DNA of 14,915 nucleotides. It comes from a virus (taxonomy: Duplodnaviria > Heunggongvirae > Uroviricota > Caudoviricetes). The notes below the pieces were generated by a model. It saw only the letters and a program-made list of their open reading frames with translations. It ran no database searches and was not told the DNA's origin. Where the stretch lies: the IMG/VR virus record IMGVR_UViG_2537562091_000005; one strand, 5' to 3'. Of this stretch, positions 1,454 to 14,915 are shown piece by piece. Made by a program: the position numbers and the translations under genes. Within the stretch, counting starts at the first letter, position 1, and every line of letters starts with the position of its first letter.

Positions 1454-1531
1454 CGCATCACCTCTGGCAGGCGCCAATGTTAGACTGAAATTGACGCCCG
1501 ATGTTGATTATTCATAATCAGCTATGAAGTT

Positions 1532-1741
1532 TTAATTTGAATACAATGCAATTCTCGAGGACTGAAGTTTCTCGCAATTAAAATTTATCAGTTTTACTTT
1601 CTGCTCTCTGGAAACGCCTGCTTCTTTTTTACCTGAGAGCATTTTTTCGCATTCTGATTTCGTTAGTTTAGATTTTGAATATCTTGTCCAGTTAGTAGGA
1701 GTGCCACCTTCCTTTTCAATAGTGGCGGTAATTTTATACAT
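1532..1741 (-). CDS. ydaC: Small prophage protein (YdaC-like, 69 aa), function unknown
   Basis: Minus-strand ORF; the preferred start (MYKITATIEKEGG...) has GGAGG 5 nt upstream, and the longer 93-aa version starts without an SD. The int-xis-ydaC order matches the Rac left arm as I remember it. The symbol rests on synteny, not verified homology. Confidence 0.5.
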   Translation of the reverse strand: MYKITATIEKEGGTPTNWTRYSKSKLTKSECEKMLSGKKEAGVSREQKVKLINFNCEKLQSSRIALYSN

Positions 1742-1995
1742 GAACACCTCCATTATTATTTCCAGTGGTTCGTTTATTCCATCTTTCGAGTGCTTCTTTT
1801 TCACTTCCACCATAACCGGTTCGGGATTCGCATCCGTTACCCTGGAACGCCGTGCATTACTGGCGGCGCAGGAAGCGTTAAGTACGGCAATTGATGCGCA
1901 TGATGATGCAGTCCAAGCCGTTTACCGGAAAGCGCATTTCAGCGGCGGCGGTTCTCCTAGCGATTCTGTCGTAGTGCATTGATTGAAATTAATCG

Positions 1996-2017: not shown

Positions 2018-2027
2018 TCAGTTAAAT

Positions 2028-2445
2028 GTAACGCTGCGAGCGTTACAAGGTGAAAACAAATGGCTTCAAACTGGATAAAGCTCGAAGTTATTACGCCGGA
2101 TAAGCCGGAAATATTCAGGCTTGCTGAGATTCTGAATATTGATCCAGATGCCGCATTAGGGAAAGTCATTCGCTTCTGGGCATGGGCGGATCAACAAATG
2201 ATAGACGGTAACGCAGAGTGTAACGCTCGCGGCGTTACAAAAAGTGCAATAGATCGCATCACTTTTATGGCTGGTTTTGCTGATGCGTTAATTCAGGTTG
2301 GATGGCTGGTCGAAACTAATGGTGTGTTGTCGCTTCCTAACTTTGAGCGCCATAACGGGAAAAGCTCTAAAAAACGGGCGGTTACAAACGAGAGAGTAAC
2401 AAAAATACGAGAACTGAAACGAAAAGGTAACGCTGCCAGCGTTAC
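2028..2445. repeat. Dispersed family of 19-bp perfect palindromes GTAACGCT-N-AGCGTTAC, each followed by an A-run
   Basis: Seen directly: 2028..2046 GTAACGCTGCGAGCGTTAC; 2220..2238 GTAACGCTCGCGGCGTTAC (extra half-site GTAACGC at 2209..2215); 2427..2445 GTAACGCTGCCAGCGTTAC; degenerate copy GTTAC-N10-GTAAC at 2381..2400. Copy 1 ends 1 nt upstream of the SD of the ydaW-like gene (2047..2053); the others lie inside its coding sequence in the same codon phase (encoding N-A-x-x-V-T-K). Confidence 0.7.
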
Positions 2446-2563
2446 AAAAACGGATCAAAAAGCGTTATCTGCATCATCGTCTGCCTGTCATGGGCTGTTA
2501 ATCATTACCGTGATAACGCCACCGCCTACAAAGAGCAGCGCGACAAAAATGCCAGAGAACTGA
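2060..2563 (+). CDS. Phage protein, YdaW-like N-terminal fragment; last ~30 codons are out-of-frame Rz sequence (pseudogene-like fusion)
   Basis: ATG at 2060 with SD AAGGTGA 6 nt upstream. The N-terminal ~130 aa ([46 protein letters not shown]...) look like a real phage protein, possibly DNA-binding or replication-associated. From about 2461 the ORF reads through the Rz N-terminal region in another frame (ending ...[19 protein letters not shown]), which indicates a deletion fusion. Family assignment is uncertain. Confidence 0.5.
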
Positions 2564-2895
2564 AGCTGGCGAACGCGGCAATTACTGACATGCAGATGCG
2601 TCAGCGTGATGTTGCTGCGCTCGATGCAAAATACACGAAGGAGTTAGCTGATGCGAAAGCTGAAAATGATGCTCTGCGTGATGATGTTGCCGCTGGTCGT
2701 CGTCGGTTGCACATCAAAGCAGTCTGTCAGTCAGTGCGTGAAGCCACCACCGCCTCCGGCGTGGATAATGCAGCCTCCCCCCGACTGGCAGACACCGCTG
2801 AACGGGATTATTTCACCCTCCGGGAACGACTGGTAATGATGCAGGCCCAACTTGAAGGTGCTCAGCAATACATAACCGAACAGTGTTTAAAGTAA
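2464..2895 (+). pseudogene. rzpR: Rz-like inner-membrane spanin gene, 5'-truncated (start and first ~12 codons lost)
   Basis: The frame open from 2431 translates to ...[102 protein letters not shown]..., which I recognise as lambda Rz from its TM segment onward. There is no start codon upstream of the TM segment; the first ATG (2590) gives a 101-aa product lacking the membrane anchor. Confidence 0.8.
2651..2836 (+). CDS. rzoR: Rz1-like outer-membrane lipoprotein spanin (o-spanin), 61 aa, nested in the +1 frame of Rz
   Basis: [24 protein letters not shown]... has a signal peptide with lipobox LVVVGC and a proline-rich mature part ([15 protein letters not shown]), typical of Rz1. SD AAGGAG lies 7 nt upstream of the ATG. 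The embedded arrangement inside Rz is the classical spanin architecture. Confidence 0.85.
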
Positions 2896-2981
2896 AATCT
2901 TAACTACAATATGATTCATTTTGATGATTGTTTCATAAGGAACAGTGAAGTAAGATCTAAGAGGAGTTAAATTTTATACAG

Positions 2982-3015
2982 TATAATCATAATATTGCAG
3001 CAAGGTGGTTATAAT
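2982..3015 (+). promoter_or_regulatory. Putative promoter -10 elements upstream of trkG (TATAAT at 2982..2987 and 3010..3015)
   Basis: AT-rich intergenic region with two perfect TATAAT hexamers; no good -35 match. Pattern-based only. Confidence 0.2.
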
Positions 3016-3032
3016 TGAAAGAATATTTAGAT

Positions 3033-4490
3033 ATGAATACATCTCATGTAAGAGTTGTTACTCATATGTGTGGGTTCCTGGTTTGGCTCTATAGTCTTTC
3101 AATGTTGCCACCAATGGTTGTAGCATTGTTTTATAAAGAAAAAAGCCTGTTCGTTTTCTTTATAACTTTCGTTATATTTTTTTGTATTGGTGGCGGAGCG
3201 TGGTATACAACTAAGAAATCTGGCATTCAATTACGTACCCGTGATGGGTTTATTATAATTGTAATGTTTTGGATTTTGTTTTCTGTTATTAGTGCATTCC
3301 CTTTATGGATTGACTCAGAACTTAATTTAACGTTCATTGATGCTCTGTTTGAAGGGGTTTCTGGAATAACAACAACAGGAGCAACTGTAATTGATGATGT
3401 TAGTTCATTACCTCGGGCATATTTGTACTATCGGTCACAGTTAAATTTTATAGGTGGTTTAGGAGTTATTGTTCTGGCGGTTGCTGTATTGCCATTATTG
3501 GGTATTGGTGGTGCAAAGCTTTATCAGTCAGAAATGCCGGGGCCATTTAAGGATGACAAACTCACTCCCCGCCTGGCCGATACGTCACGGACACTGTGGA
3601 TAACTTATTCTTTATTAGGTATTGCTTGTATTGTCTGTTATAGACTTGCAGGAATGCCTTTGTTTGATGCTATTTGTCACGGGATTTCCACAGTTTCGCT
3701 TGGTGGTTTCTCAACTCATAGCGAGAGTATCGGATATTTTAATAACTATTTGGTTGAGCTGGTGGCTGGTTCTTTTTCCCTGCTATCGGCTTTCAACTTC
3801 ACTCTTTGGTATATTGTTATTAGCAGGAAAACGATAAAACCTTTAATCAGAGATATTGAACTTCGTTTCTTTCTGTTAATAGCCTTAGGGGTGATCATTG
3901 TTACCTCTTTCCAGGTCTGGCATATAGGTATGTATGACTTGCATGGAAGTTTTATTCATTCGTTTTTTCTTGCCAGCTCCATGCTCACTGATAATGGTTT
4001 AGCTACGCAGGATTATGCAAGCTGGCCCACGCACACGATAGTGTTTTTGCTGTTGTCAAGTTTCTTTGGGGGATGTATAGGTTCAACTTGTGGTGGAATT
4101 AAGTCACTTCGATTTCTTATACTTTTCAAACAAAGCAAACACGAGATAAATCAGCTTTCTCATCCCAGAGCGTTGTTGAGTGTAAATGTAGGAGGGAAGA
4201 TAGTTACAGATCGTGTAATGAGGTCTGTATGGAGTTTCTTTTTTCTTTATACTCTCTTCACGGTGTTTTTTATACTGGTGTTAAATGGTATGGGATATGA
4301 TTTTCTTACATCATTTGCAACAGTGGCTGCATGTATTAATAATATGGGATTAGGTTTTGGGGCTACTGCATCGTCATTCGGAGTGCTTAATGACATTGCA
4401 AAATATTTAATGTGCATAGCTATGATTCTTGGTCGCCTTGAAATTTATCCTGTTATTATATTGTTTTCAGGTTTTTTTTGGCGCTCCTAA
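3033..4490 (+). CDS. trkG: Trk-system potassium uptake membrane protein TrkG (prophage-encoded moron), 485 aa
   Basis: Polytopic membrane protein (MNTSHVRVVTHMCGFLVWLYSLSMLPPMVVALFYKEK...) with repeated glycine-rich selectivity-filter-like motifs typical of TrkH/TrkG; recognised as Rac TrkG. Markedly AT-rich relative to neighbours. Start ambiguity: ATG 3033 has no SD, whereas in-frame TTG 3015 is preceded by AAGGTGG at a 6-nt spacing. Confidence 0.9.
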   Translation: MNTSHVRVVTHMCGFLVWLYSLSMLPPMVVALFYKEKSLFVFFITFVIFFCIGGGAWYTTKKSGIQLRTRDGFIIIVMFWILFSVISAFPLWIDSELNLTFIDALFEGVSGITTTGATVIDDVSSLPRAYLYYRSQLNFIGGLGVIVLAVAVLPLLGIGGAKLYQSEMPGPFKDDKLTPRLADTSRTLWITYSLLGIACIVCYRLAGMPLFDAICHGISTVSLGGFSTHSESIGYFNNYLVELVAGSFSLLSAFNFTLWYIVISRKTIKPLIRDIELRFFLLIALGVIIVTSFQVWHIGMYDLHGSFIHSFFLASSMLTDNGLATQDYASWPTHTIVFLLLSSFFGGCIGSTCGGIKSLRFLILFKQSKHEINQLSHPRALLSVNVGGKIVTDRVMRSVWSFFFLYTLFTVFFILVLNGMGYDFLTSFATVAACINNMGLGFGATASSFGVLNDIAKYLMCIAMILGRLEIYPVIILFSGFFWRS

Positions 4491-4627: not shown

Positions 4628-5419
4628 ATGAGCGAGAAATTAAAGATAGTCTATCGCCCATTACAAGAATTGTCACCGTATGCGCACAACGCCAGGACGC
4701 ACAGCCCTGAGCAGGTGGCACAACTGGTAGAAAGTATTAAGCAATTCGGCTGGACTAATCCGGTGCTGATTGACGAAAAGGGCGAAATTATTGCGGGTCA
4801 CGGTCGTGTTATGGCGGCTGAAATGCTCAAAATGGATTCTGTTCCGGTCATTGTTCTGTCTGGCCTGACGGATGAGCAGAAAAAGGCGTACCGCCTGGCA
4901 GATAATCGCCTGCCGATGAATGCTGGCTGGGATGAAGATCTGTTGCGGATGGAGCTGTCGGACCTAATCAATGCTGATTTTGATGTCTCCCTGACAGGCT
5001 TCATCCCGACAGAAATTGATGAACTGTTGACGGATGTTTTGCCCGGTACAGGAAATGAGGAGGAGCCGTATACGACGAAAATTGATACGCCTGTTTATGA
5101 GCCGTCGGGCGGTAAACCGGATATCAGTGAACTGTACGACGATACGAAAACGCAGGAGCTGATCAGCCGGATACGTTCGGCTTCCCTTGAGCCTGATATT
5201 GAGAAATTCCTCCTGTGTGCGGCAGAACGTCACACGGTGTTTAATTTCAGCAGAATTGCGGACTATTACGCTCACGCCCCCGCTGAAATTCAGTGTTTTT
5301 TCGAGGAGTCGGCGCTGGTGATCATTGATTATCAGCAGGCTATTGAAAATGGATTTGTCCGGATGACGCAGCGCATGGTGGAGATCATGCATGGTGGTGA
5401 GGAGGAGGAATATGCGTGA
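4628..5419 (+). CDS. ParB-like nuclease N-terminal domain protein (ParB/Srx superfamily), 263 aa
   Basis: N-terminal region IVYRPLQELSPYAHNARTHSPEQVAQLVESIKQFGWTNPVLIDEKGEIIAGHGRVMAA fits the ParB N-terminal fold (conserved NAR..S and GHGR motifs), followed by an acidic C-terminal extension. AGGA lies 3 nt upstream of the ATG. No methyltransferase motifs are visible. Confidence 0.7.
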   Translation: MSEKLKIVYRPLQELSPYAHNARTHSPEQVAQLVESIKQFGWTNPVLIDEKGEIIAGHGRVMAAEMLKMDSVPVIVLSGLTDEQKKAYRLADNRLPMNAGWDEDLLRMELSDLINADFDVSLTGFIPTEIDELLTDVLPGTGNEEEPYTTKIDTPVYEPSGGKPDISELYDDTKTQELISRIRSASLEPDIEKFLLCAAERHTVFNFSRIADYYAHAPAEIQCFFEESALVIIDYQQAIENGFVRMTQRMVEIMHGGEEEEYA

Positions 5420-7926: not shown

Positions 7927-8360
7927 CGTTTACTGAAATCAGAAATACGGTTATTTCCAGAATGACGGCACAGACGATTATTGATGGAAAAGACGTATTG
8001 TATCCGAACGCGCCAACGTTCGATCCTTCCGGTAAGTTAATCTGGGCGCGGTTAAGTAATATTCCCGGGCAGGCTGGAGTTAATGAAATTGGCGCGGGGC
8101 CGATTGTTTATCGCACGGGGATAATCATTATTCAGTTATTTGTCCCCGCAGGTTCTGGTTCAAAACTCATTACTGAGACAGCCGATAAATTGCGGGAACT
8201 GTTTGAGTTTCAGGATGACGATCGTCTCAGTTACCAGGCTGTTTCCTCAACCAGCCAGACTACTGCGGACAGAATAACAGCACATAATTTACGCATAATT
8301 ACCTCTCGCTTTTCTGCAATAAAAAAGGCGCCATTTCTGGCGCCCGTATCTGGGTTATAA
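7923..8360 (+). CDS. Putative tail terminator / neck protein, 145 aa; 3' end runs through an opposite-strand terminator (possibly chimeric C-terminus)
   Basis: ATGA overlap with the upstream gene. The last ~15 codons (…SAIKKAPFLAPVSGL) are encoded by the hairpin that serves as terminator of the convergent J fragment, so the C-terminus may derive from a rearrangement joint. Confidence 0.45.
   Translation: MTFTEIRNTVISRMTAQTIIDGKDVLYPNAPTFDPSGKLIWARLSNIPGQAGVNEIGAGPIVYRTGIIIIQLFVPAGSGSKLITETADKLRELFEFQDDDRLSYQAVSSTSQTTADRITAHNLRIITSRFSAIKKAPFLAPVSGL
8320..8344 (-). terminator. Intrinsic terminator for the minus-strand J fragment
   Basis: On the minus strand: GGCGCCA, GAAA loop, TGGCGCC, then TTTTTTATT, beginning about 20 nt past the J stop (stem at plus 8327..8333 and 8338..8344; A-run 8321..8326). 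Confidence 0.6.
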
Positions 8361-8363
8361 AAT

Positions 8364-10925
8364 TCAGCTAATCGTGATGCCTGCAGTGGCTTTCTTCATC
8401 ACAACAACCAGCAAATCGCTGATACTTGCTGTGGGATACCAACCATTTACCCACCATGCTGATACAGAAAACTCCAGTGTCATTACGCCACTGCCTGCTG
8501 GCATATCAATAACACCCGTGTAAATCAGAGTATTATCCAGAGCCGTTCGGTTATAAATTTCAGCCCCGTTTTTCTTCACTATCAGGCGGCATGACGAATA
8601 AGTATCGCTATTCTCCCGCTCATGTCTGGCACCGCTGAAAGCCACCGCTGGAATAACAATTTGCCGGTCAAACGGCTGATCGTCATAAACCCTGACGGTA
8701 ATGGTCCCTGATGGCCACCGCTCCGGTGCACGGGAGTCCCGGGGGAAAGCTTTGCCCACTGTTTTAACGAGATCGCCTTCAATCTGGTTCGCGGACAGTT
8801 TTCCCAGAACCCGACAGTTCTCGTTAATCGTGACGTTGTTGAGCGTCCCGGAGTTCGCATTCACGCTACCGCTGATATCGGCATTTTTCGCCGTCAGCCG
8901 CCCGTCCGGTGTCAGGGAAAATGCCGGAGGATTACCGCCGCTGGTAATGGTCGGAGCCGTCAGGCGTTTCAGGAACACGTCGTTCATGAATATCTGATCG
9001 CCCTGACCAACAAACATTGGTCTTGTGTTGCCATTAGACGGATCAATAAACGCGATACGGTTAGCGGCAACCAGGAACTGGCTCAGTTTGCCTTCCTCCG
9101 TATCCTCCATGCTGAGGCCAAGCCCCGCGACATAATGCCTGCCGTCTTCGGTCTGCTCAATTTTGACGCCCCACATGGCATTCCATTTATCGTTGGCGTC
9201 TTTCCACTCTTTCGAAAACTCCTCCAGTTTGCTGGCGTTATCCTCCGTCAGCTCGACTTTTTCCAGCAGCTCATTGCCGAGATGGGATTCGGTTATCTGG
9301 CCTTTGAAAAAATCCAGGTAACCTTCCGCATCATCGCTCGCCCGACCAACAGCCTCCACGAATGCCGATTTGCCGACGGTGTTCACACTGCGGATATAAA
9401 AGTAATAATCACGGCCCGGTTTGATATTGGTACTGGCGGCTATCCAGTACAGCGCCGTGCCAAGATAGCGGGCTGTGGTTTCAACCTGTCTGATATCAGC
9501 AACCCGCTTTTCCGAGAACCAGAACTCAAACTGTACCGTCGGATCATAAACGGCAAGATACGGCGTGGCGGTTATCTGAAAATAGCCCGGCGTCAGCTCA
9601 ATCCGCGACGGTGCTGCCGGTGCGGCAATCCGGAACGATACCGATGCCGGATCGCCCTGCTGTCCCCACGCATTTGCCGCCCGGACTGTCAGCCTGTAGT
9701 TCCCCAGCGCCAGCTGCCTGAAGCGGTATGTGTTTTCCGTCGTCCTGGCCGTGCTGACCAGCCGCTCACTGCCGTCGTCCGCTGCCACGGTCAGGCGAAG
9801 CATAAAGCTCACCCCCTTCACCACCTTCGGCGTGTCCCAGCGCGCCAGCACCTGATATTCCCCGCTGTCTGCGGTGACTTCGGCAGTCAGGTGCTGCACT
9901 GCTGGCGGCGTGACACCATTCACCGTGCCGCTCTGGTCGCCGTCAAAGTGCGCCCCGTTATCCACGATGGCTTCTTTTTCCGGTACATGCTGCACGGCGG
10001 TGATGGCATACGTGCCGTCGTCGTTCTCACGGATACTCACGCAGCGGAACAGGCGCTGGCGCAGCGTCGGCAGCTTCAGCCCCCACACGCTGTATCCGGC
10101 AACGCCGTCAGGAACACGACTCACTTTTACCTTCACGCCGTCGGTGACGGACTGGACCTCCACGCTGACCGGATTGCCACTTCCGTCAACCAGGCTTATC
10201 AGCGTGGTACCGGAGGATGGCAGCGTGATTTCACGGTCGAGCGTCAGCGTCCGGGTCTGGCTGTTCACCGCCAGCACGCGCCCGCCGATGCTGATACCCG
10301 CATAGTCATCATCGCAGATTTCAATGACATCCCCCGGTACATGGCGAAGCCCTTCTGCGCCCACGCTGAAGTCCACGGTCTGCGTTTCCAGCAGCTCCGT
10401 TTTAATCAGCCACAGCCCGGCGCGGTGTGCCTGCCCCCGACTGGTACAGCCAAAGGCATCCATCTTCGTGACGTTACGGCCGTAACGGGCAATGGCCTGC
10501 GTATCCTCCACGAGCTCTGTCGCCGTCTCCCAGCCGTTATCCGGGTCAATCCAGTTCACCTCAACGGCATTATGGCGGTCCTTCAGGGCGCTGAAGCTGT
10601 AGCGGAACGGCGCGCCATCATCCGGCATCACCACATTACTGCGGTTATAGGTCCACACCTTATCCGACGGTCGGTCCTGCACGAACGTCAGCGTCTGCCC
10701 GTTCCATACCGGCATACAGCGCATCGCCGAGCAGAAATCACTGAGCACATCCCACGCCTTGCGCTGTGTGGTCAGCCAGGCATTACAGGTAATGCGCGGC
10801 TCCGTGCCGCCAAAGCCGTCCGGCACTGACTGGTCGCAGTACTGGCCGATGACATACAGCGCCCATTTGTCCACATCCGCCGCACCAAGACGTTTCCCCA
10901 TGCCGTAGCGCGGGTGGGTCAGCAT
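8364..10925 (-). pseudogene. Lambda J-like host-specificity / tail-tip protein, N-terminally truncated and inverted relative to lom and stf
   Basis: From [50 protein letters not shown]... to the C-terminus the translation closely matches lambda gpJ as I recall it, including FN3-like repeats and the C-terminal receptor-binding region. About 280 N-terminal residues of a ~1130-aa J are absent. The ORF-track extension to 11030 (GTG start, 35 non-J codons) is antisense to lom and has no SD. Confidence 0.8.
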
Positions 10926-11171
10926 ATGGCTTACAGCCGAGTGTCGACCTTCTCCGGGGATTATCTCCGCGTAACTGACAACAAGGGGAAAACGCACGAT
11001 GTGCTGACCGGAAGTGATGACGGTCGCCACAGCAATACGTCTCTGGCGTGGGGGGCTGGCGTGCAGTTTAACCCGACCGAATCCGTGGCCATTGATATTG
11101 CTTATGAAGGCTCCGGCAGTGGTGACTGGCGCACTGACGGTTTCATCGTGGGTGTCGGTTATAAATTCTGA
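10926..11171 (+). pseudogene. lom (Ail/Lom family outer-membrane protein) 3' fragment, last ~81 codons only
   Basis: C-terminus ...[43 protein letters not shown] matches the Lom/Ail beta-barrel C-terminus with terminal Phe. The signal peptide and N-terminal two-thirds are missing. Confidence 0.8.
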
Positions 11172-11226: not shown

Positions 11227-11235
11227 GGAGTGGAT

Positions 11236-13587
11236 ATGGCAGCAGTAAAAATCTCAGGTGTGCTGAAAGATGGTGCGGGAAAACCAATACAGAACTGCAC
11301 TATTCAACTGAAGGCAAAGCGTAACAGCACCACGGTACTGGTGAACACGGTGGCCTCTGAAAATCCGGATGAAGCCGGGCGTTACAGCATGGATGTTGAG
11401 TATGGCCAGTACAGTGTCATCCTGCTGGTTGAAGGTTTTCCGCCTTCACATGCCGGGACCATTACCGTCTATGAAGGTTCCAGACCAGGTACGCTGAATG
11501 ATTTTCTTGGTGCCATGACGGAGGATGATGCCCGTCCGGAGGCACTGCGCCGTTTTGAACTGATGGTGGAAGAAGCAGCACGCAACGCTGAAGCCGCCTC
11601 TCAGAGCGCAGCGGCGGCAAAGAAATCCGAAACTGCAGCGGCATCATCGAAGAACGCGGCGAAAACCTCAGAAACGAATGCAGCTAATAGTGCACAGGCG
11701 GCAGCGACCTCACAGACTGCATCAGCAAACTCCGCGACAGCAGCCAAAAAATCAGAAACCAACGCGAAAAACAGCGAGACAGCCGCAAAGACGAGCGAAA
11801 CCAACGCAAAGTCCAGCCAGACGGCAGCGAAAACCAGCGAAACGAATGCCAAAGCCAGTGAAACTGCGGCAAAAAACAGCCAGGTTGCGGCAGCCGGTTC
11901 TGCGACTTCAGCAGCTGGATCAGCAACTGCTGCGGCTAACAGCCAGAAAGCTGCGAAGACGAGTGAAACTAACGCAAAGTCCAGCCAGACGGCAGCGAAG
12001 ACCAGCGAAACGAATGCCAAAGCCAGCGAAACTGCGGCGAAAAACAGCCAGGATGCAGCAGCCCAAAGCGAGAGTGCCGCAGCTGGTTCTGCAAGTGCGG
12101 CGGCTTCTTCTGCCACTGCATCAGCCAACAGTCAAAAAGCAGCAAAAACCAGTGAAACCAACACAAAGGCGAGCGAGACTGCGGCGACTAACTCGGCGAA
12201 AGCATCCGCTGCAAGCCAGATGGCTGCAAAAGCAAGTGAAGACGCAGCCAGAGAGTATGCAAGCCAGGCAGCAGAGCCGTATAAATATGTCTTACAGCCA
12301 CTGCCTGATGTGTGGATACCGTTTAATGACTCGATGGATATGATTACAGGATTTGGCCCGGGATATAAAAAAATAACAGTGCGCGATGATGTGGTCACTA
12401 TACCATCCGACAAAATTGTCCCGTTTTCCCGCGCGAGTTCCGCGACCTATATCAATAAGTCCGGCGCTCTTACCATTGCAGAAATTAATGAGCCACGTTT
12501 TGAAAAAGAAGGGCTGTTAATTGAAGGGCAGAGAACAAATTACTTCACAAACTCAAACGCTCCGGAATTGTGGAATAAAAATCCAGGCCTGAAGATAAGC
12601 GAGACAAAAACCGATTCCAGGGGTTTTAAATATGCAACGTTTACCCCAGAAAAATATTTAGATAGTTCTGGCTCATATGGAATTATATCAGGGGCAGCAG
12701 CAAATAAGATAGCGGTAGTCAAAAATGATGCAGTTACAATATCCTTTAGAGCAAAAGGGGATAATGTAAGATTTGCGGCTAGATTTGATAAAGGGGATTC
12801 GCCAGTTGCTGTAGCTGCCATTTTTATTGATAGCGCCACACTAGATACATTCACGTCTGGAGCAGATGCGTCTAATATTGCTGTGAAAAATGTTGTTCGT
12901 GACGGTGAGTGGGTTGCTGTAGAGGCTGTTTATAAAGTAACAGACGACTCTACATATATTAACGGCGCCATTCTGATGTCAAACAAACTGGGTGCTAATT
13001 TTGATAAGACTAGTTTTATGGATGTAACCACCCCTCAAATAGAGCTAGGTTCTTGCTTATCATCATTTATTGTCACTCCAGGTGTTCCTGCGACAAGGGC
13101 GAGTGATATGGTTATTTTTTCAACCAGAAATAACATAAGTTCTGTCCCTTTAAGCTGTCTTGTTGAAATACATAAAAATTGGGACTCTACGCCAAATCAG
13201 GCCCCACGAATTTTAACCACTATTGGCGTGGCGACTAATGATGAACAACTGGTATTGGCTTTCAGGACGCCTACAAGTCCGGATGTAGAACCTTTACCTT
13301 ATGTTCAGTTTGGAGTGAGATCTGCATATCTTAGTCCATCTGTGAAGGCCGGGCGCAAAATGATTGCTGGTTTTGTCTGTAATAGCTCGACTGAATTTCG
13401 TTGCTGTTGTAATGGTTACCTGTCACCTGTTCAGACTTCGTCATGGAAGAATACCGGAGCTGCACATGAAATACGTATTGGGGGAACTTCTGCTGGAGGA
13501 GAACGTCACTTGTTTGGTCACGTTCGTAACCTGAGAATATGGCATAAAGAATTAACTGATGCGCAAATGGGGGAGAGTATTAAATGA
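11236..13587 (+). CDS. Side tail fibre protein, mosaic: lambda-Stf-like N-terminus, Ala/Ser/Thr tandem-repeat shaft, divergent C-terminal region with possible lectin-like (LamG/concanavalin-type) end
   Basis: ATG 11236 with GGAG 5 nt upstream (ORF track starts at in-frame GTG 11230). The N-terminal ~115 aa (MAAVKISGVLKDGAGKPIQNCTIQLKAKRNSTTVLVNTV...) match the lambda Stf N-terminus from memory. Residues ~120-330 are KTSETNAK-type repeats. The C-terminal ~450 aa are low-GC and end ...GERHLFGHVRNLRIWHKELTDAQMGESIK, reminiscent of LamG-like domain termini; no His-rich GxHxH motifs. Confidence 0.8.
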   Translation: MAAVKISGVLKDGAGKPIQNCTIQLKAKRNSTTVLVNTVASENPDEAGRYSMDVEYGQYSVILLVEGFPPSHAGTITVYEGSRPGTLNDFLGAMTEDDARPEALRRFELMVEEAARNAEAASQSAAAAKKSETAAASSKNAAKTSETNAANSAQAAATSQTASANSATAAKKSETNAKNSETAAKTSETNAKSSQTAAKTSETNAKASETAAKNSQVAAAGSATSAAGSATAAANSQKAAKTSETNAKSSQTAAKTSETNAKASETAAKNSQDAAAQSESAAAGSASAAASSATASANSQKAAKTSETNTKASETAATNSAKASAASQMAAKASEDAAREYASQAAEPYKYVLQPLPDVWIPFNDSMDMITGFGPGYKKITVRDDVVTIPSDKIVPFSRASSATYINKSGALTIAEINEPRFEKEGLLIEGQRTNYFTNSNAPELWNKNPGLKISETKTDSRGFKYATFTPEKYLDSSGSYGIISGAAANKIAVVKNDAVTISFRAKGDNVRFAARFDKGDSPVAVAAIFIDSATLDTFTSGADASNIAVKNVVRDGEWVAVEAVYKVTDDSTYINGAILMSNKLGANFDKTSFMDVTTPQIELGSCLSSFIVTPGVPATRASDMVIFSTRNNISSVPLSCLVEIHKNWDSTPNQAPRILTTIGVATNDEQLVLAFRTPTSPDVEPLPYVQFGVRSAYLSPSVKAGRKMIAGFVCNSSTEFRCCCNGYLSPVQTSSWKNTGAAHEIRIGGTSAGGERHLFGHVRNLRIWHKELTDAQMGESIK
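11590..12240 (+). repeat. In-frame tandem repeats inside stf (11-aa sub-repeats; about 100-nt near-identical copies at a 168-nt period)
   Basis: The peptide AAKTSETNAKSSQTAAKTSETNAKASETAAKNSQ occurs twice, 56 codons apart (about 11786..11885 and 11954..12053). The two copies differ by six synonymous transitions. A third partial copy follows (KAAKTSETNTKASETAA). Confidence 0.75.
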
Positions 13588-13865
13588 AAGATTTAACACT
13601 CAAATTTGCAGACAGGGCCGACTTTTCGGCCTTTATGGAGAGCATTGGCTATTATGATGACGAGTCGATGCAGGATGATATTCTTATTGACGTGATAGGT
13701 AACGTGTACAAAGAAACCGGAGAACTGACTGAAGATGGCGAACCGGTATGTGTTAAGGAAGACGGATATTTTGTAAACGTGCGCATCATTAATGATTCGC
13801 AAATATCGTCATTATTCGATGAATACGTGGTTGCTGTTGAGCATCAACTTCGTGGCTGGATGTGA
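13584..13865 (+). CDS. Small acidic hypothetical protein, 93 aa (possible fibre assembly/accessory factor by position)
   Basis: ATGA start-stop overlap with stf and SD GGGGGAGAG upstream. Acidic composition (MKDLTLKFADRADFSAFMESIGYYDDESMQDDILIDVIGNVYKETGELTEDGEPV...). No similarity to lambda Tfa that I can recognise. Confidence 0.55.
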   Translation: MKDLTLKFADRADFSAFMESIGYYDDESMQDDILIDVIGNVYKETGELTEDGEPVCVKEDGYFVNVRIINDSQISSLFDEYVVAVEHQLRGWM

Positions 13866-13874
13866 GGAAGAAAA

Positions 13875-14915
13875 ATGGCTACATCGACAGTAATTCCTGA
13901 TGACATCAAAACGCTAAAATCCGACGTTAGCAAATTAAAAAACGATCAAGGAAGCTACGCAACAAAATTATATGTAGACAGCAAAGATGAAATCGTTGGT
14001 GACTGGTCTGCTTCATGGTATCAGCAGGTATTGCCAACTAGCGGAGCTATATTTGGGAGAAAACTCCGCTCAACTCACAGGACGGCAGGTGTTGAGGATG
14101 CGTATTGCGAACTATACCTCAAAAAATGGATAGACAGTCCAGGTAACGCAATGGCGCGCCTTAACCTGAACGATAACGGGACAAACATTTGCTGGGACTT
14201 TACCAACCTTTATGGCGGTACGATGATTTTTCCCGGTGACAGCGGATACCTCAAAATGGGTAACTGCCTTATGTCATACAGCAAGCGTGGAAGTAACGCG
14301 CTTATTAAATTTGATTACACCGACACATTACAGATCAAATATGCCAATCATGGGTCAACCATGACATTAAACACACAGGGAACCGCTTATGCTGGTGTTA
14401 CTGCTCAATTGTGGGGCAACACCAGCCGTCCTGTTGTTTATGAAGTCGGTGTTGATGGTGGCGCTTATATGTTCTATGCGCAGAAAAATACCGATAACAC
14501 CTATATGTTAAGCGTTAATGGTGCATGTCATGCCACCGCATTTAACCAGCATTCCGACCGGGATCTGAAAGACAACATTCAGGTGATCGATAATGCAACC
14601 GACCGCATCCGTAAAATGAACGGCTATACATACACGCTTAAAGAAAACGGTATGCCCTATGCTGGTGTCATTGCACAGGAAGCTCTGGAAGCAATCCCAG
14701 AAGTTGTAGGTTCCGCAATGAAATATCAGGACGGTGCAAGCGGATCGGAAGGTGAAGAAGGTGAACGTTATTACACAGTAGATTATTCTGGTGTTACTGG
14801 CTTGCTTGTTCAGGTAGCCAGAGAGTCAGACGACAGAATAACAGCACTGGAAGAAGAAAACGCAGAATTAAGACAAAGATTATCTGCAATTGAGGCGGCG
14901 CTTGCGTCTAAATAA
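13875..14915 (+). CDS. Short tail fibre/tip protein with C-terminal S74-type intramolecular chaperone (autoproteolytic) domain, 346 aa
   Basis: C-terminal ~120 aa (HSDRDLKDNIQVIDNATDRIRKMNGYTYTLKENGMPYAGVIAQEALEAIPEVVGSA...VDYSGVTGLLVQVARESDDRITALEEENAELRQRLSAIEAAL) match the Peptidase_S74 chaperone signature (Ser-x4-Lys dyad, NI..I, GxIAQE, coiled-coil tail). Predicted self-cleavage at Ser227 (codon 14553..14555). SD GAGGAAG upstream of the ATG. Confidence 0.75.
   Translation: MATSTVIPDDIKTLKSDVSKLKNDQGSYATKLYVDSKDEIVGDWSASWYQQVLPTSGAIFGRKLRSTHRTAGVEDAYCELYLKKWIDSPGNAMARLNLNDNGTNICWDFTNLYGGTMIFPGDSGYLKMGNCLMSYSKRGSNALIKFDYTDTLQIKYANHGSTMTLNTQGTAYAGVTAQLWGNTSRPVVYEVGVDGGAYMFYAQKNTDNTYMLSVNGACHATAFNQHSDRDLKDNIQVIDNATDRIRKMNGYTYTLKENGMPYAGVIAQEALEAIPEVVGSAMKYQDGASGSEGEEGERYYTVDYSGVTGLLVQVARESDDRITALEEENAELRQRLSAIEAALASK

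Follow-up and report, generated by a model that had tools for sequence, protein, structure and literature searches.

The Rz/Rz1 locus preceding trkG in the cryptic prophage of E. coli H489 is, with high probability, what remains of a Rac-type lambdoid prophage's lysis cassette, and no longer functional. One illegitimate deletion event, at the tetranucleotide GTTA, would have joined codon 136 of a replication initiator gene to codon 12 of Rz. Lost with it would be the start of Rz and half of its membrane anchor, the holin and endolysin genes, the late regulatory region and all further replication genes. The nested o-spanin gene rzoR would have survived because it lies downstream of the breakpoint, beside the retained cargo gene trkG. 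The original prediction, made from the DNA letters and their open reading frames, had described a decayed lysis cassette in this region, and its core is upheld in this study: the Rz start and half of the anchor are gone, and both holin and endolysin are absent.

The window, i.e. the whole 14.9-kb stretch of DNA analysed, represents the left two-thirds of the Rac-type cryptic prophage of E. coli H489. An exact-match query with the 167-aa fused ORF returned EGB57999.1 of this strain (assembly GCA_000191015.1, scaffold GL872249.1), in which the prophage adjoins ttcA, the canonical Rac site, in the gene context ttcA-intR-xis-rcbA...Rz'-trkG-ynaK (Rz' stands for the truncated Rz gene). The presence of trkG identifies the locus as Rac, and this gene is annotated beside Rz in BL21, K-12 and many further strains. 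None of the 5,426 complete E. coli genomes searched covered at least 80% of the window. Further decay is apparent within the window, namely rearrangement of the tail region and a second deletion in H489 (ralR::ydaT; about 1838-1841, TAC microhomology). The features of the window are collected in Table 1, together with the deletion joints that end in Rz.

Table 1. Features of the window and large-deletion joints ending in Rz (SD, Shine-Dalgarno sequence; nt, nucleotide of the Rz gene)
Feature	Position in window	Strand	Remarks
intR	1-1236	minus	first gene of window
xis, rcbA/DUF1187, RalA sRNA, then a short island of early-region DNA			left part of window, after intR
Chimeric ORF, 167 aa	2060..2563	+	codons 1-136, initiator; last 31 codons, Rz DNA in +1 frame
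Deletion joint, 4-nt microhomology GTTA	2464..2467		three-way alignments
rzpR-like pseudogene, Rz (i-spanin) codons 12-154 plus stop	2464..2895	+	PF03245, E=8e-53
SD of rzoR, AAGGAG	2638..2643	+	7 nt before rzoR ATG; read from sequence
rzoR, Rz1-type o-spanin lipoprotein gene, 61 aa	2651..2836	+	PF06085, E=2e-19
trkG, TrkH-family K+ transporter	3033..4490	+	cargo gene directly 3' of Rz'/rzoR; PF02386, E=4e-144
trkG, ParB-like ynaK, P22-type coat gene, head-tail genes, rearranged tail genes			part of window after Rz'/rzoR
K-12 joint: DUF1627...AASV :: Rz nt 21			about 334 complete genomes
AH62/AH65 joint: DUF1627...KAFPQ :: Rz nt ~36			2 genomes
H489 joint: initiator :: Rz nt 34
BE2-5 joint: recE :: Rz nt ~141			outside cluster

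In the Rz reading frame, an open stretch extends from 2431 to 2895 and is closed upstream by a TAA at 2428-2430; no ATG, GTG or TTG is present in this frame between 2431 and 2589, the first such codon being located at 2590, and no upstream in-frame start with an SD exists. Homology to Rz, at the level of both DNA and protein, begins exactly at 2464, corresponding to nt 34 and codon 12 of Rz, and the same position is the left limit of the matches to lambda and other phage Rz genes in a megablast search against phages (99% identity for Rac-like phage records, 98.6-98.9% for lambda and 434). By tblastn, residues 12-154 of BL21 Rz are 100% identical in the window, and residues 1-11 (MSRVAAIIYAL) are missing, unrelated sequence standing in their place. 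Residues 1-24 of lambda Rz form its N-terminal transmembrane domain (PMC5295617), and with the homology starting at codon 12 the break thus falls inside the membrane anchor, in which the longest uncharged run is shortened from 20 to 13 residues. The alignments with lambda Rz, BL21(DE3) Rac Rz and K-12 all bear out the predicted resumption of Rz in the middle of the transmembrane helix at about 2464, and also the predicted loss of start and anchor, with the precision that half of the anchor (codons 1-11) is deleted. Rz' does not possess the start codon and N-terminal transmembrane domain that define an i-spanin, and the start-codon mutant M1K of lambda Rz is lysis-defective (Cahill et al., PMC5295617). 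The periplasmic coiled-coil domain keeps its homology to Rz (about 92% protein identity between Rz' and lambda Rz), including the equivalents of Cys99 and Cys152. A gene caller placed a 142-aa 'Phage_lysis' gene at 2467-2895 of the window, and for strain AH62 an equivalent start-less Rz' CDS is listed by PGAP; both of these begin with ATC, and no SD precedes either of them.

At the joint itself, homology to the initiator gene stops at 2467 and homology to Rz starts at 2464. The initiator gene reads ...AAAAAGC-GTTA-CCAGAGG..., the intact Rz gene reads ...TGCTCTG-GTTA-TCTGCATC..., and the window reads ...AAAAAGC-GTTA-TCTGCATC...; by these alignments, the joint is to be regarded as a microhomology-mediated illegitimate deletion. 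The prophage of strain E2863 is a complete lambdoid one and possesses this initiator; there, initiator codon 136 and the Rz start lie about 15.5 kb apart, and this interval holds ydaV, DUF1627, DUF977, Q-region genes, tRNAs, holin and lysozyme. The initiator::Rz joint was found in 0 of the 5,426 complete E. coli genomes and had no exact match in the GTDB species-representative genomes. An assembly artefact was considered as the source of the joint and was rejected, since an identical fused ORF is present in the NCBI draft, the ENA assembly and the Logan assembly, and a second isolate (GCA_016107725.1) contains a near-identical fused ORF that has this joint too. The second isolate has an intact left arm (kilR, sieB, repressor and ydaT) and a lambda-like allele patch at 2522-2535; as it shares the joint while retaining the left arm, the initiator::Rz deletion must have come first, and the ralR-to-ydaT loss in H489 later.

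The upstream ORF crosses the joint in another frame, as had been noticed from the sequence, and is terminated by TGA at 2561-2563, reached in the +1 frame of Rz. The fusion partner had been called ydaW-like, and this identification has to be corrected. Residues 1-136 of the chimeric ORF match phrog_2509 (replication initiation protein) with E=5.5e-67, and as far as 2467 its DNA matches, without a single difference (100% identity), a 262-aa gene of E2863 that is situated between ydaT and ydaV, the position of ydaU in K-12 Rac; the partner is the N-terminal half of a lambda-O-like replication initiator. YdaW of K-12 belongs to another family (phrog_630, DUF1627), and in BLASTP of the chimeric ORF against YdaW only the last 32 residues align (91% identity). 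This tail (...KMPEN) represents, in both proteins, a +1-frame translation of the Rz 5' end; YdaW carries it because a deletion of K-12's own fuses the DUF1627 gene to Rz. The resemblance to YdaW is thus an artefact common to two independent fusions. When the 42-aa out-of-frame tail was used for a protein-database search, mostly short ORFs from noisy contigs of about 3.5 kb were recovered, and K-12 YdaW was missed. These observations are of value for annotation: the GenBank label 'endopeptidase' given to the chimeric ORF sits on a truncated initiator with an out-of-frame Rz tail, the last ~35 residues of K-12 'YdaW' are an out-of-frame Rz artefact, and a start-less 142-aa 'lysis protein' is called at this locus by some pipelines.

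The other lysis genes were searched for in the window by tblastn with eight query proteins taken from four intact cassettes (holins, endolysins and, as accessory lysis protein, YdfR), and no holin or endolysin was detected (best E-value 0.34). Pfam scans of the large ORFs of the window gave no holin or endolysin domain either, in agreement with the prediction that the cassette lacks both.

The gene rzoR is wholly embedded in the segment 2464-2895, in the +1 frame relative to Rz. Its product carries a basic n-region, a signal peptide of codons 1-19, a VVGC lipobox with Cys20 predicted to be lipidated (codon at 2708-2710), Cys29 and a proline-rich stretch; the mature protein starts with CTSK, and Thr at position +2 fits outer-membrane sorting. 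With signal peptide, lipobox Cys, absence of Asp at +2 and proline-rich mature part, RzoR shows the sequence features of an o-spanin and is a predicted lipoprotein. RzoR does not differ at any residue from its K-12 counterpart or from Rz1 of BL21 Rac (100% identity), and agrees with lambda Rz1 at 56 of the first 57 residues. The statement that the nested Rz1 gene retains its full length, its SD and its lipobox was therefore correct: relative to functional Rz1 genes no inactivating change was found, the sequence being identical to the alleles of intact cassettes. A consensus-match scan predicted no sigma-70-like promoter on the + strand between 1800 and 2885; a promoter-like match on this strand was located at 1491-1518, upstream of RalA. 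Such matches were given no weight as evidence of expression. Since the deletion has taken away both Q and the late promoter, and no evident + strand promoter stands ahead of rzoR, we infer that its expression is little or none. A MALDI-TOF paper reports an 'RzoR' peak with a mass of 4586.76 (PMC6115441), which agrees with the 4586.2 Da that we computed for the unlipidated mature RzoR peptide. This peak was set aside as evidence for RzoR, since the mass is that of the unlipidated peptide and RzoD and RzoR are not separable by it. Ribosome-profiling papers leave out rzoD and rzoR as being nearly identical.

Rz in the inner membrane and Rz1, the outer-membrane lipoprotein, function solely together in a complex, and lysis is blocked when one of them is defective (PMC5295617), and spanins act after holin and endolysin (PMC5295617; PMC6139136). 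Rz' would not be translatable and, if translated, would not be anchored in the inner membrane. The rzoR product, if expressed at all, would be an outer-membrane lipoprotein of 42 residues without partner, and we infer that such an orphan RzoR is devoid of lytic activity, because a spanin needs both subunits and the prior action of holin and endolysin. Without the i-spanin start and transmembrane domain, and without the cassette, the locus does not constitute a functional two-component spanin, and disruption of the outer membrane by the pair at lysis is predicted to be absent. An inert relic is thus the most likely state, in which at most the orphan lipoprotein would be made.

Intact relatives of this locus have kept the cassette. 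About 1,488 complete genomes carry a trkG-linked Rz, and holin, endolysin, full-length Rz and trkG occur together in BL21, HL15, BHD6 and PEC422. In a spread sample of 16 trkG-linked complete genomes, 11 contained full-length Rz with an adjacent lysozyme gene, and 4 contained the K-12-type truncation (most of them laboratory derivatives). Metagenome contigs scanned for Rz linked to the trkG-proximal spacer yielded 48 loci, and for all of the 45 with readable upstream sequence the Rz start codon was preceded by the 3' end of the endolysin gene. Over 2464-3100 the window shows 0 differences (100% identity) from the BL21-type allele of the intact cassette. Its 437-nt haplotype is shared by BL21 and by one of the metagenome loci (L043), in both of which the start of Rz is intact, and its RzoR allele is the commonest among the aligned trkG-linked loci (31 of 53; intact or unresolved Rz 5' ends in 50 of the 53). 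As the stretch is still identical to undeleted alleles, no decay is detectable within it, and the comparison of dN/dS between rzoR and the flanking rzpR, suggested together with the original prediction, has no power because substitutions relative to intact alleles over 2464-3100 are zero. That the nested Rz1 gene is intact in spite of the broken Rz had been presented as noteworthy; with no difference from the intact alleles, it is the null expectation, and the intact rzoR does not count as evidence of selection. Between K-12 and the window, Rz' differs at six sites, all of them outside rzoR and all common to the Rz of HL15, of which the start is intact; these differences represent inherited allelic variation and not decay. 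As a counterpoint to the lack of divergence in H489, the joint persists in the second isolate with a different allele patch in the downstream Rz, rzoR being intact there, and the initiator::Rz joint has therefore persisted through some divergence.

It appears very unlikely to us that rzoR has been kept by selection, be it as a domesticated outer-membrane lipoprotein or as an in-trans partner for the Rz of other lambdoid phages. Every large deletion found (K-12, AH62, H489 and BE2-5) ends upstream of rzoR, leaving its SD and ORF intact, and rzoR is unchanged in the two isolates with the H489 joint; however, the sparing of rzoR by three or four independent deletions is near the neutral expectation (P about 0.07 for three), and the zero substitutions relative to intact alleles give no power for detection of selection. 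A further substitution within the overlap, 2779 C>T, alters the residue encoded by Rz but not the one encoded by Rz1, as selection on Rz1 would have it, but the same variant occurs once among the 53 aligned loci, and the cassette carrying it there may have kept its Rz start. Across these 53 loci, 23 of 186 nt are polymorphic in the rzoR overlap against 50 of 233 nt in the Rz-only part; this lower variability is, however, expected from dual coding in intact cassettes. The case of HL15 speaks directly against a need for rzoR: a 75-nt in-frame deletion between direct repeats has removed the SD, start and n-region of rzoR, and yet holin, endolysin and trkG are kept, indicating that rzoR is dispensable in at least one lineage. 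Hitch-hiking with the directly adjacent trkG explains its retention. With respect to a role in trans, the amber phenotypes of lambda Rz1 are visible in K-12 hosts carrying rzoR and rzoD, which argues against effective complementation.

That the truncated Rz is still made, by initiation at ATC 2467, by a -1 frameshift or by re-initiation at ATG 2590, and forms a working or partly working spanin pair, is extremely improbable. The calls of a 142-aa CDS here and of its equivalent in AH62 are in line with such a product, and the stop of the upstream ORF at 2563 leaves only 27 nt to the in-frame ATG 2590. The called CDSs, however, start at ATC without SD, and the run CAAAAAG at 2456-2462 does not form the canonical X XXY YYZ heptamer when read in the zero frame. 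Translation from 2467 would give only 12-13 hydrophobic residues and no positively charged N-terminus, and a product from 2590 would carry no export signal at all. Both the frameshift on CAAAAAG and initiation at ATC 2467 were thus rejected, both being non-canonical, without SD and leading to a product with no usable anchor; moreover, even a complete spanin is inactive without holin and endolysin (PMC5295617). A separate alternative concerns the origin of the relic and not its present role. The right endpoints of the K-12, H489 and AH62 deletions lie within 16 nt (Rz nt 21-36) with two different left partners, and all three joints put the upstream ORF into the same +1 frame with the same TGA, leaving an early-operon ORF that translates the Rz1 frame to about 90 nt before rzoR. 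The breakpoint might accordingly be non-random, either because the first ~40 nt of Rz is a hot spot of deletion or because deletions that silence Rz and spare the downstream region are favoured; the relic would then result from directed decay that recurs. The chance of three out of four endpoints falling within 16 nt of a 465-nt gene is roughly 0.01, but this value comes from only four large-deletion classes, sampled in a non-systematic manner, of which BE2-5 has its endpoint near nt 141. Possibly the joints of K-12 and AH62 are not independent, as their two ends lie close together, Rz' swaps allele patches with other Rz copies and thereby blurs ancestry, and no motif or hairpin was identified at the endpoints. 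We regard a non-random breakpoint as unlikely, and the wider proposal, that the 5' ~40 nt of Rz is a recurrent endpoint through a hot spot or through selection keeping rzoR and trkG, with the orphan o-spanin being domesticated, as somewhat less likely still. The clustering of endpoints is a lead and not a finding; if real, it would offer a small example of a deletion hot spot, or of selection shaping the domestication of prophages.

The reading of the locus as an inert lysis relic places it among ordinary and already known cases of prophage decay that removes host-lethal functions, and its biological weight is small. Comparison with known systems supports this placement. The loci of BL21(DE3) type, with the gene order essD-ydfR-rrrQ-Rz/Rz1-trkG, are 100% identical to the window from Rz nt 34 through the 5' end of trkG, but they keep the holin, the endolysin and the Rz start, all three of which the window has lost. 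The Rz/Rz1 pair of lambda shows 98.6% DNA identity over window 2464-2820, with Rz1 likewise in the +1 frame, and the lipobox, Cys20, Cys29 and pentaproline stretch of Rz1 as well as Cys99 and Cys152 of Rz are common to both. At their C-termini, Rz (~20 residues) and Rz1 (last 4 residues) of the window depart from lambda and represent the allele of intact Rac cassettes. Unlike lambda, the window is without Rz codons 1-11, the start codon, S, R and the pR' context; the embedded gene characteristic of a lambda-type spanin is thus present, and the cassette with holin and endolysin is not.

The closest counterpart is the pair rzpR (pseudogene, b1362) and rzoR (b4528) of K-12 Rac, located in the same prophage, at the same site (ttcA-intR) and in the same position directly upstream of trkG. 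K-12 rzpR, like Rz' of the window, has no start codon, and there too an upstream ORF runs on into Rz in its +1 frame, up to the TGA at which the chimeric ORF ends. The K-12-type joint occurs in ~334 of the 5,426 complete genomes, and joints of either K-12 or AH62 type in 336-338, 2 of these being of AH62 type. The two relics agree in position between ttcA-intR and trkG and in the combination of a truncated Rz with an intact rzoR, but they differ in the joint, which in K-12 connects ydaW (DUF1627) to Rz nt 21, and in the window connects initiator codon 136 to Rz nt 34. The locus of the window is best filed as an independent new allele of the known kind of relic annotated in K-12 as rzpR/rzoR.

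The junction between the replication-initiator gene and Rz, as it stands in the window, was also identified in a second isolate (GCA_016107725.1). The sequence of this isolate differs from the window just 3′ of the joint, at window positions 2522-2535, where it carries a patch of the lambda-type allele (ITYKAQ vs TAYKEQ). The presence of a lambda-type patch beside the same joint indicates that the dead Rz remnant exchanges sequence with other Rz copies, and gene conversion of this kind could contribute to keeping the nested rzoR intact.

Three distinct deletions, all large and carried by different strains, were found to end in the 5′ part of Rz, at Rz nucleotides 21, 34 and approximately 36, and in all three (K-12, the window and AH62) the upstream ORF enters the same Rz frame. 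The endpoint of a fourth large deletion, in BE2-5, lies at about nucleotide 141 of Rz. This grouping of endpoints could reflect either a hot spot or selection, the sample being too small to decide between the two. Rz1 was damaged by a smaller event in strain HL15, in which a 75-nt in-frame deletion, flanked by the direct repeats TCAGCGTGATGTTGCTGC (window 2601-2618) and TCTGCGTGATGATGTTGC (window 2673-2690), shortened Rz and removed the Shine-Dalgarno sequence, start codon and n-region of Rz1; HL15 retains its holin and endolysin.

Coordinates of the features described in this section
Feature	Sequence	Position	Strand	Remark
Deletion endpoint in Rz	Window	2464		
Deletion endpoint in Rz	L003 (K-12 Rac locus)	5226		
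Deletion endpoint in Rz	L012 (AH62)	2602		
Palindrome TGTAACGCTnnnAGCGTTACA	Window	2027-2047, 2219-2239, 2427-2446		19-21 bp, three copies
RalA antitoxin sRNA	Window	1557-1735	+	Complete; Rfam RF02694, 225 bits
ralR toxin gene remnant	Window	1734-1841	-	C-terminal ~33 codons
Locus of the 75-nt in-frame deletion	L008 (HL15)	1500-1889		Deletion equivalent to window ~2606-2680
J-type tip-attachment gene	Window	8364-11030	-	
Tail-fibre genes	Window	11230-14915	+	After the J-type gene
Out-of-frame Rz tail	L003 (K-12 Rac locus)	5226-5313		
Out-of-frame Rz tail	Window	2464-2563		

The palindrome TGTAACGCTnnnAGCGTTACA is repeated at intervals of about 200 bp just 5′ of and within the replication-initiator gene, and its copies probably represent iterons of an origin or binding sites for the initiator. 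A further half-site, AGCGTTA, is located 18 nt past the third copy and contains the deletion joint at 2464, and CCGTTAC is also read at the other joint (~1840). At this second joint, ralR is connected to the 3′ end of ydaT (approximately 1838-1841) with a TAC microhomology, and recET, kilR, sieB and racR were lost in the same deletion. Since ralR was cut down by this deletion and RalA is whole, RalA in the window is an orphan type I antitoxin.

Rearrangement extends to the structural region. The minus-strand J-type gene is immediately preceded by a tail-terminator gene on the plus strand, none of the complete E. coli genomes (5,426 in the set) is collinear across window position 8250, and the terminase and portal genes, which in relatives are located between the window 5′ end and about 8250, are missing from the window. 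Taken together, the strand switch, the lack of a collinear genome and the missing genes point to further rearrangement and deletion in this region.

Some current annotations can be corrected. The 142-aa 'Phage_lysis' or 'lysis protein' CDS set by gene callers at window 2467-2895, and listed in AH62 as well, begins with ATC without a Shine-Dalgarno sequence; what has been called as a gene is a pseudogene without a start codon. In K-12 YdaW (b1361), the last ~35 residues do not belong to DUF1627 and instead come from the start of Rz read in its +1 frame, and GenBank labels the equivalent H489 chimera 'endopeptidase' (EGB57999.1); both the label in H489 and the YdaW tail in K-12 are annotation artefacts.
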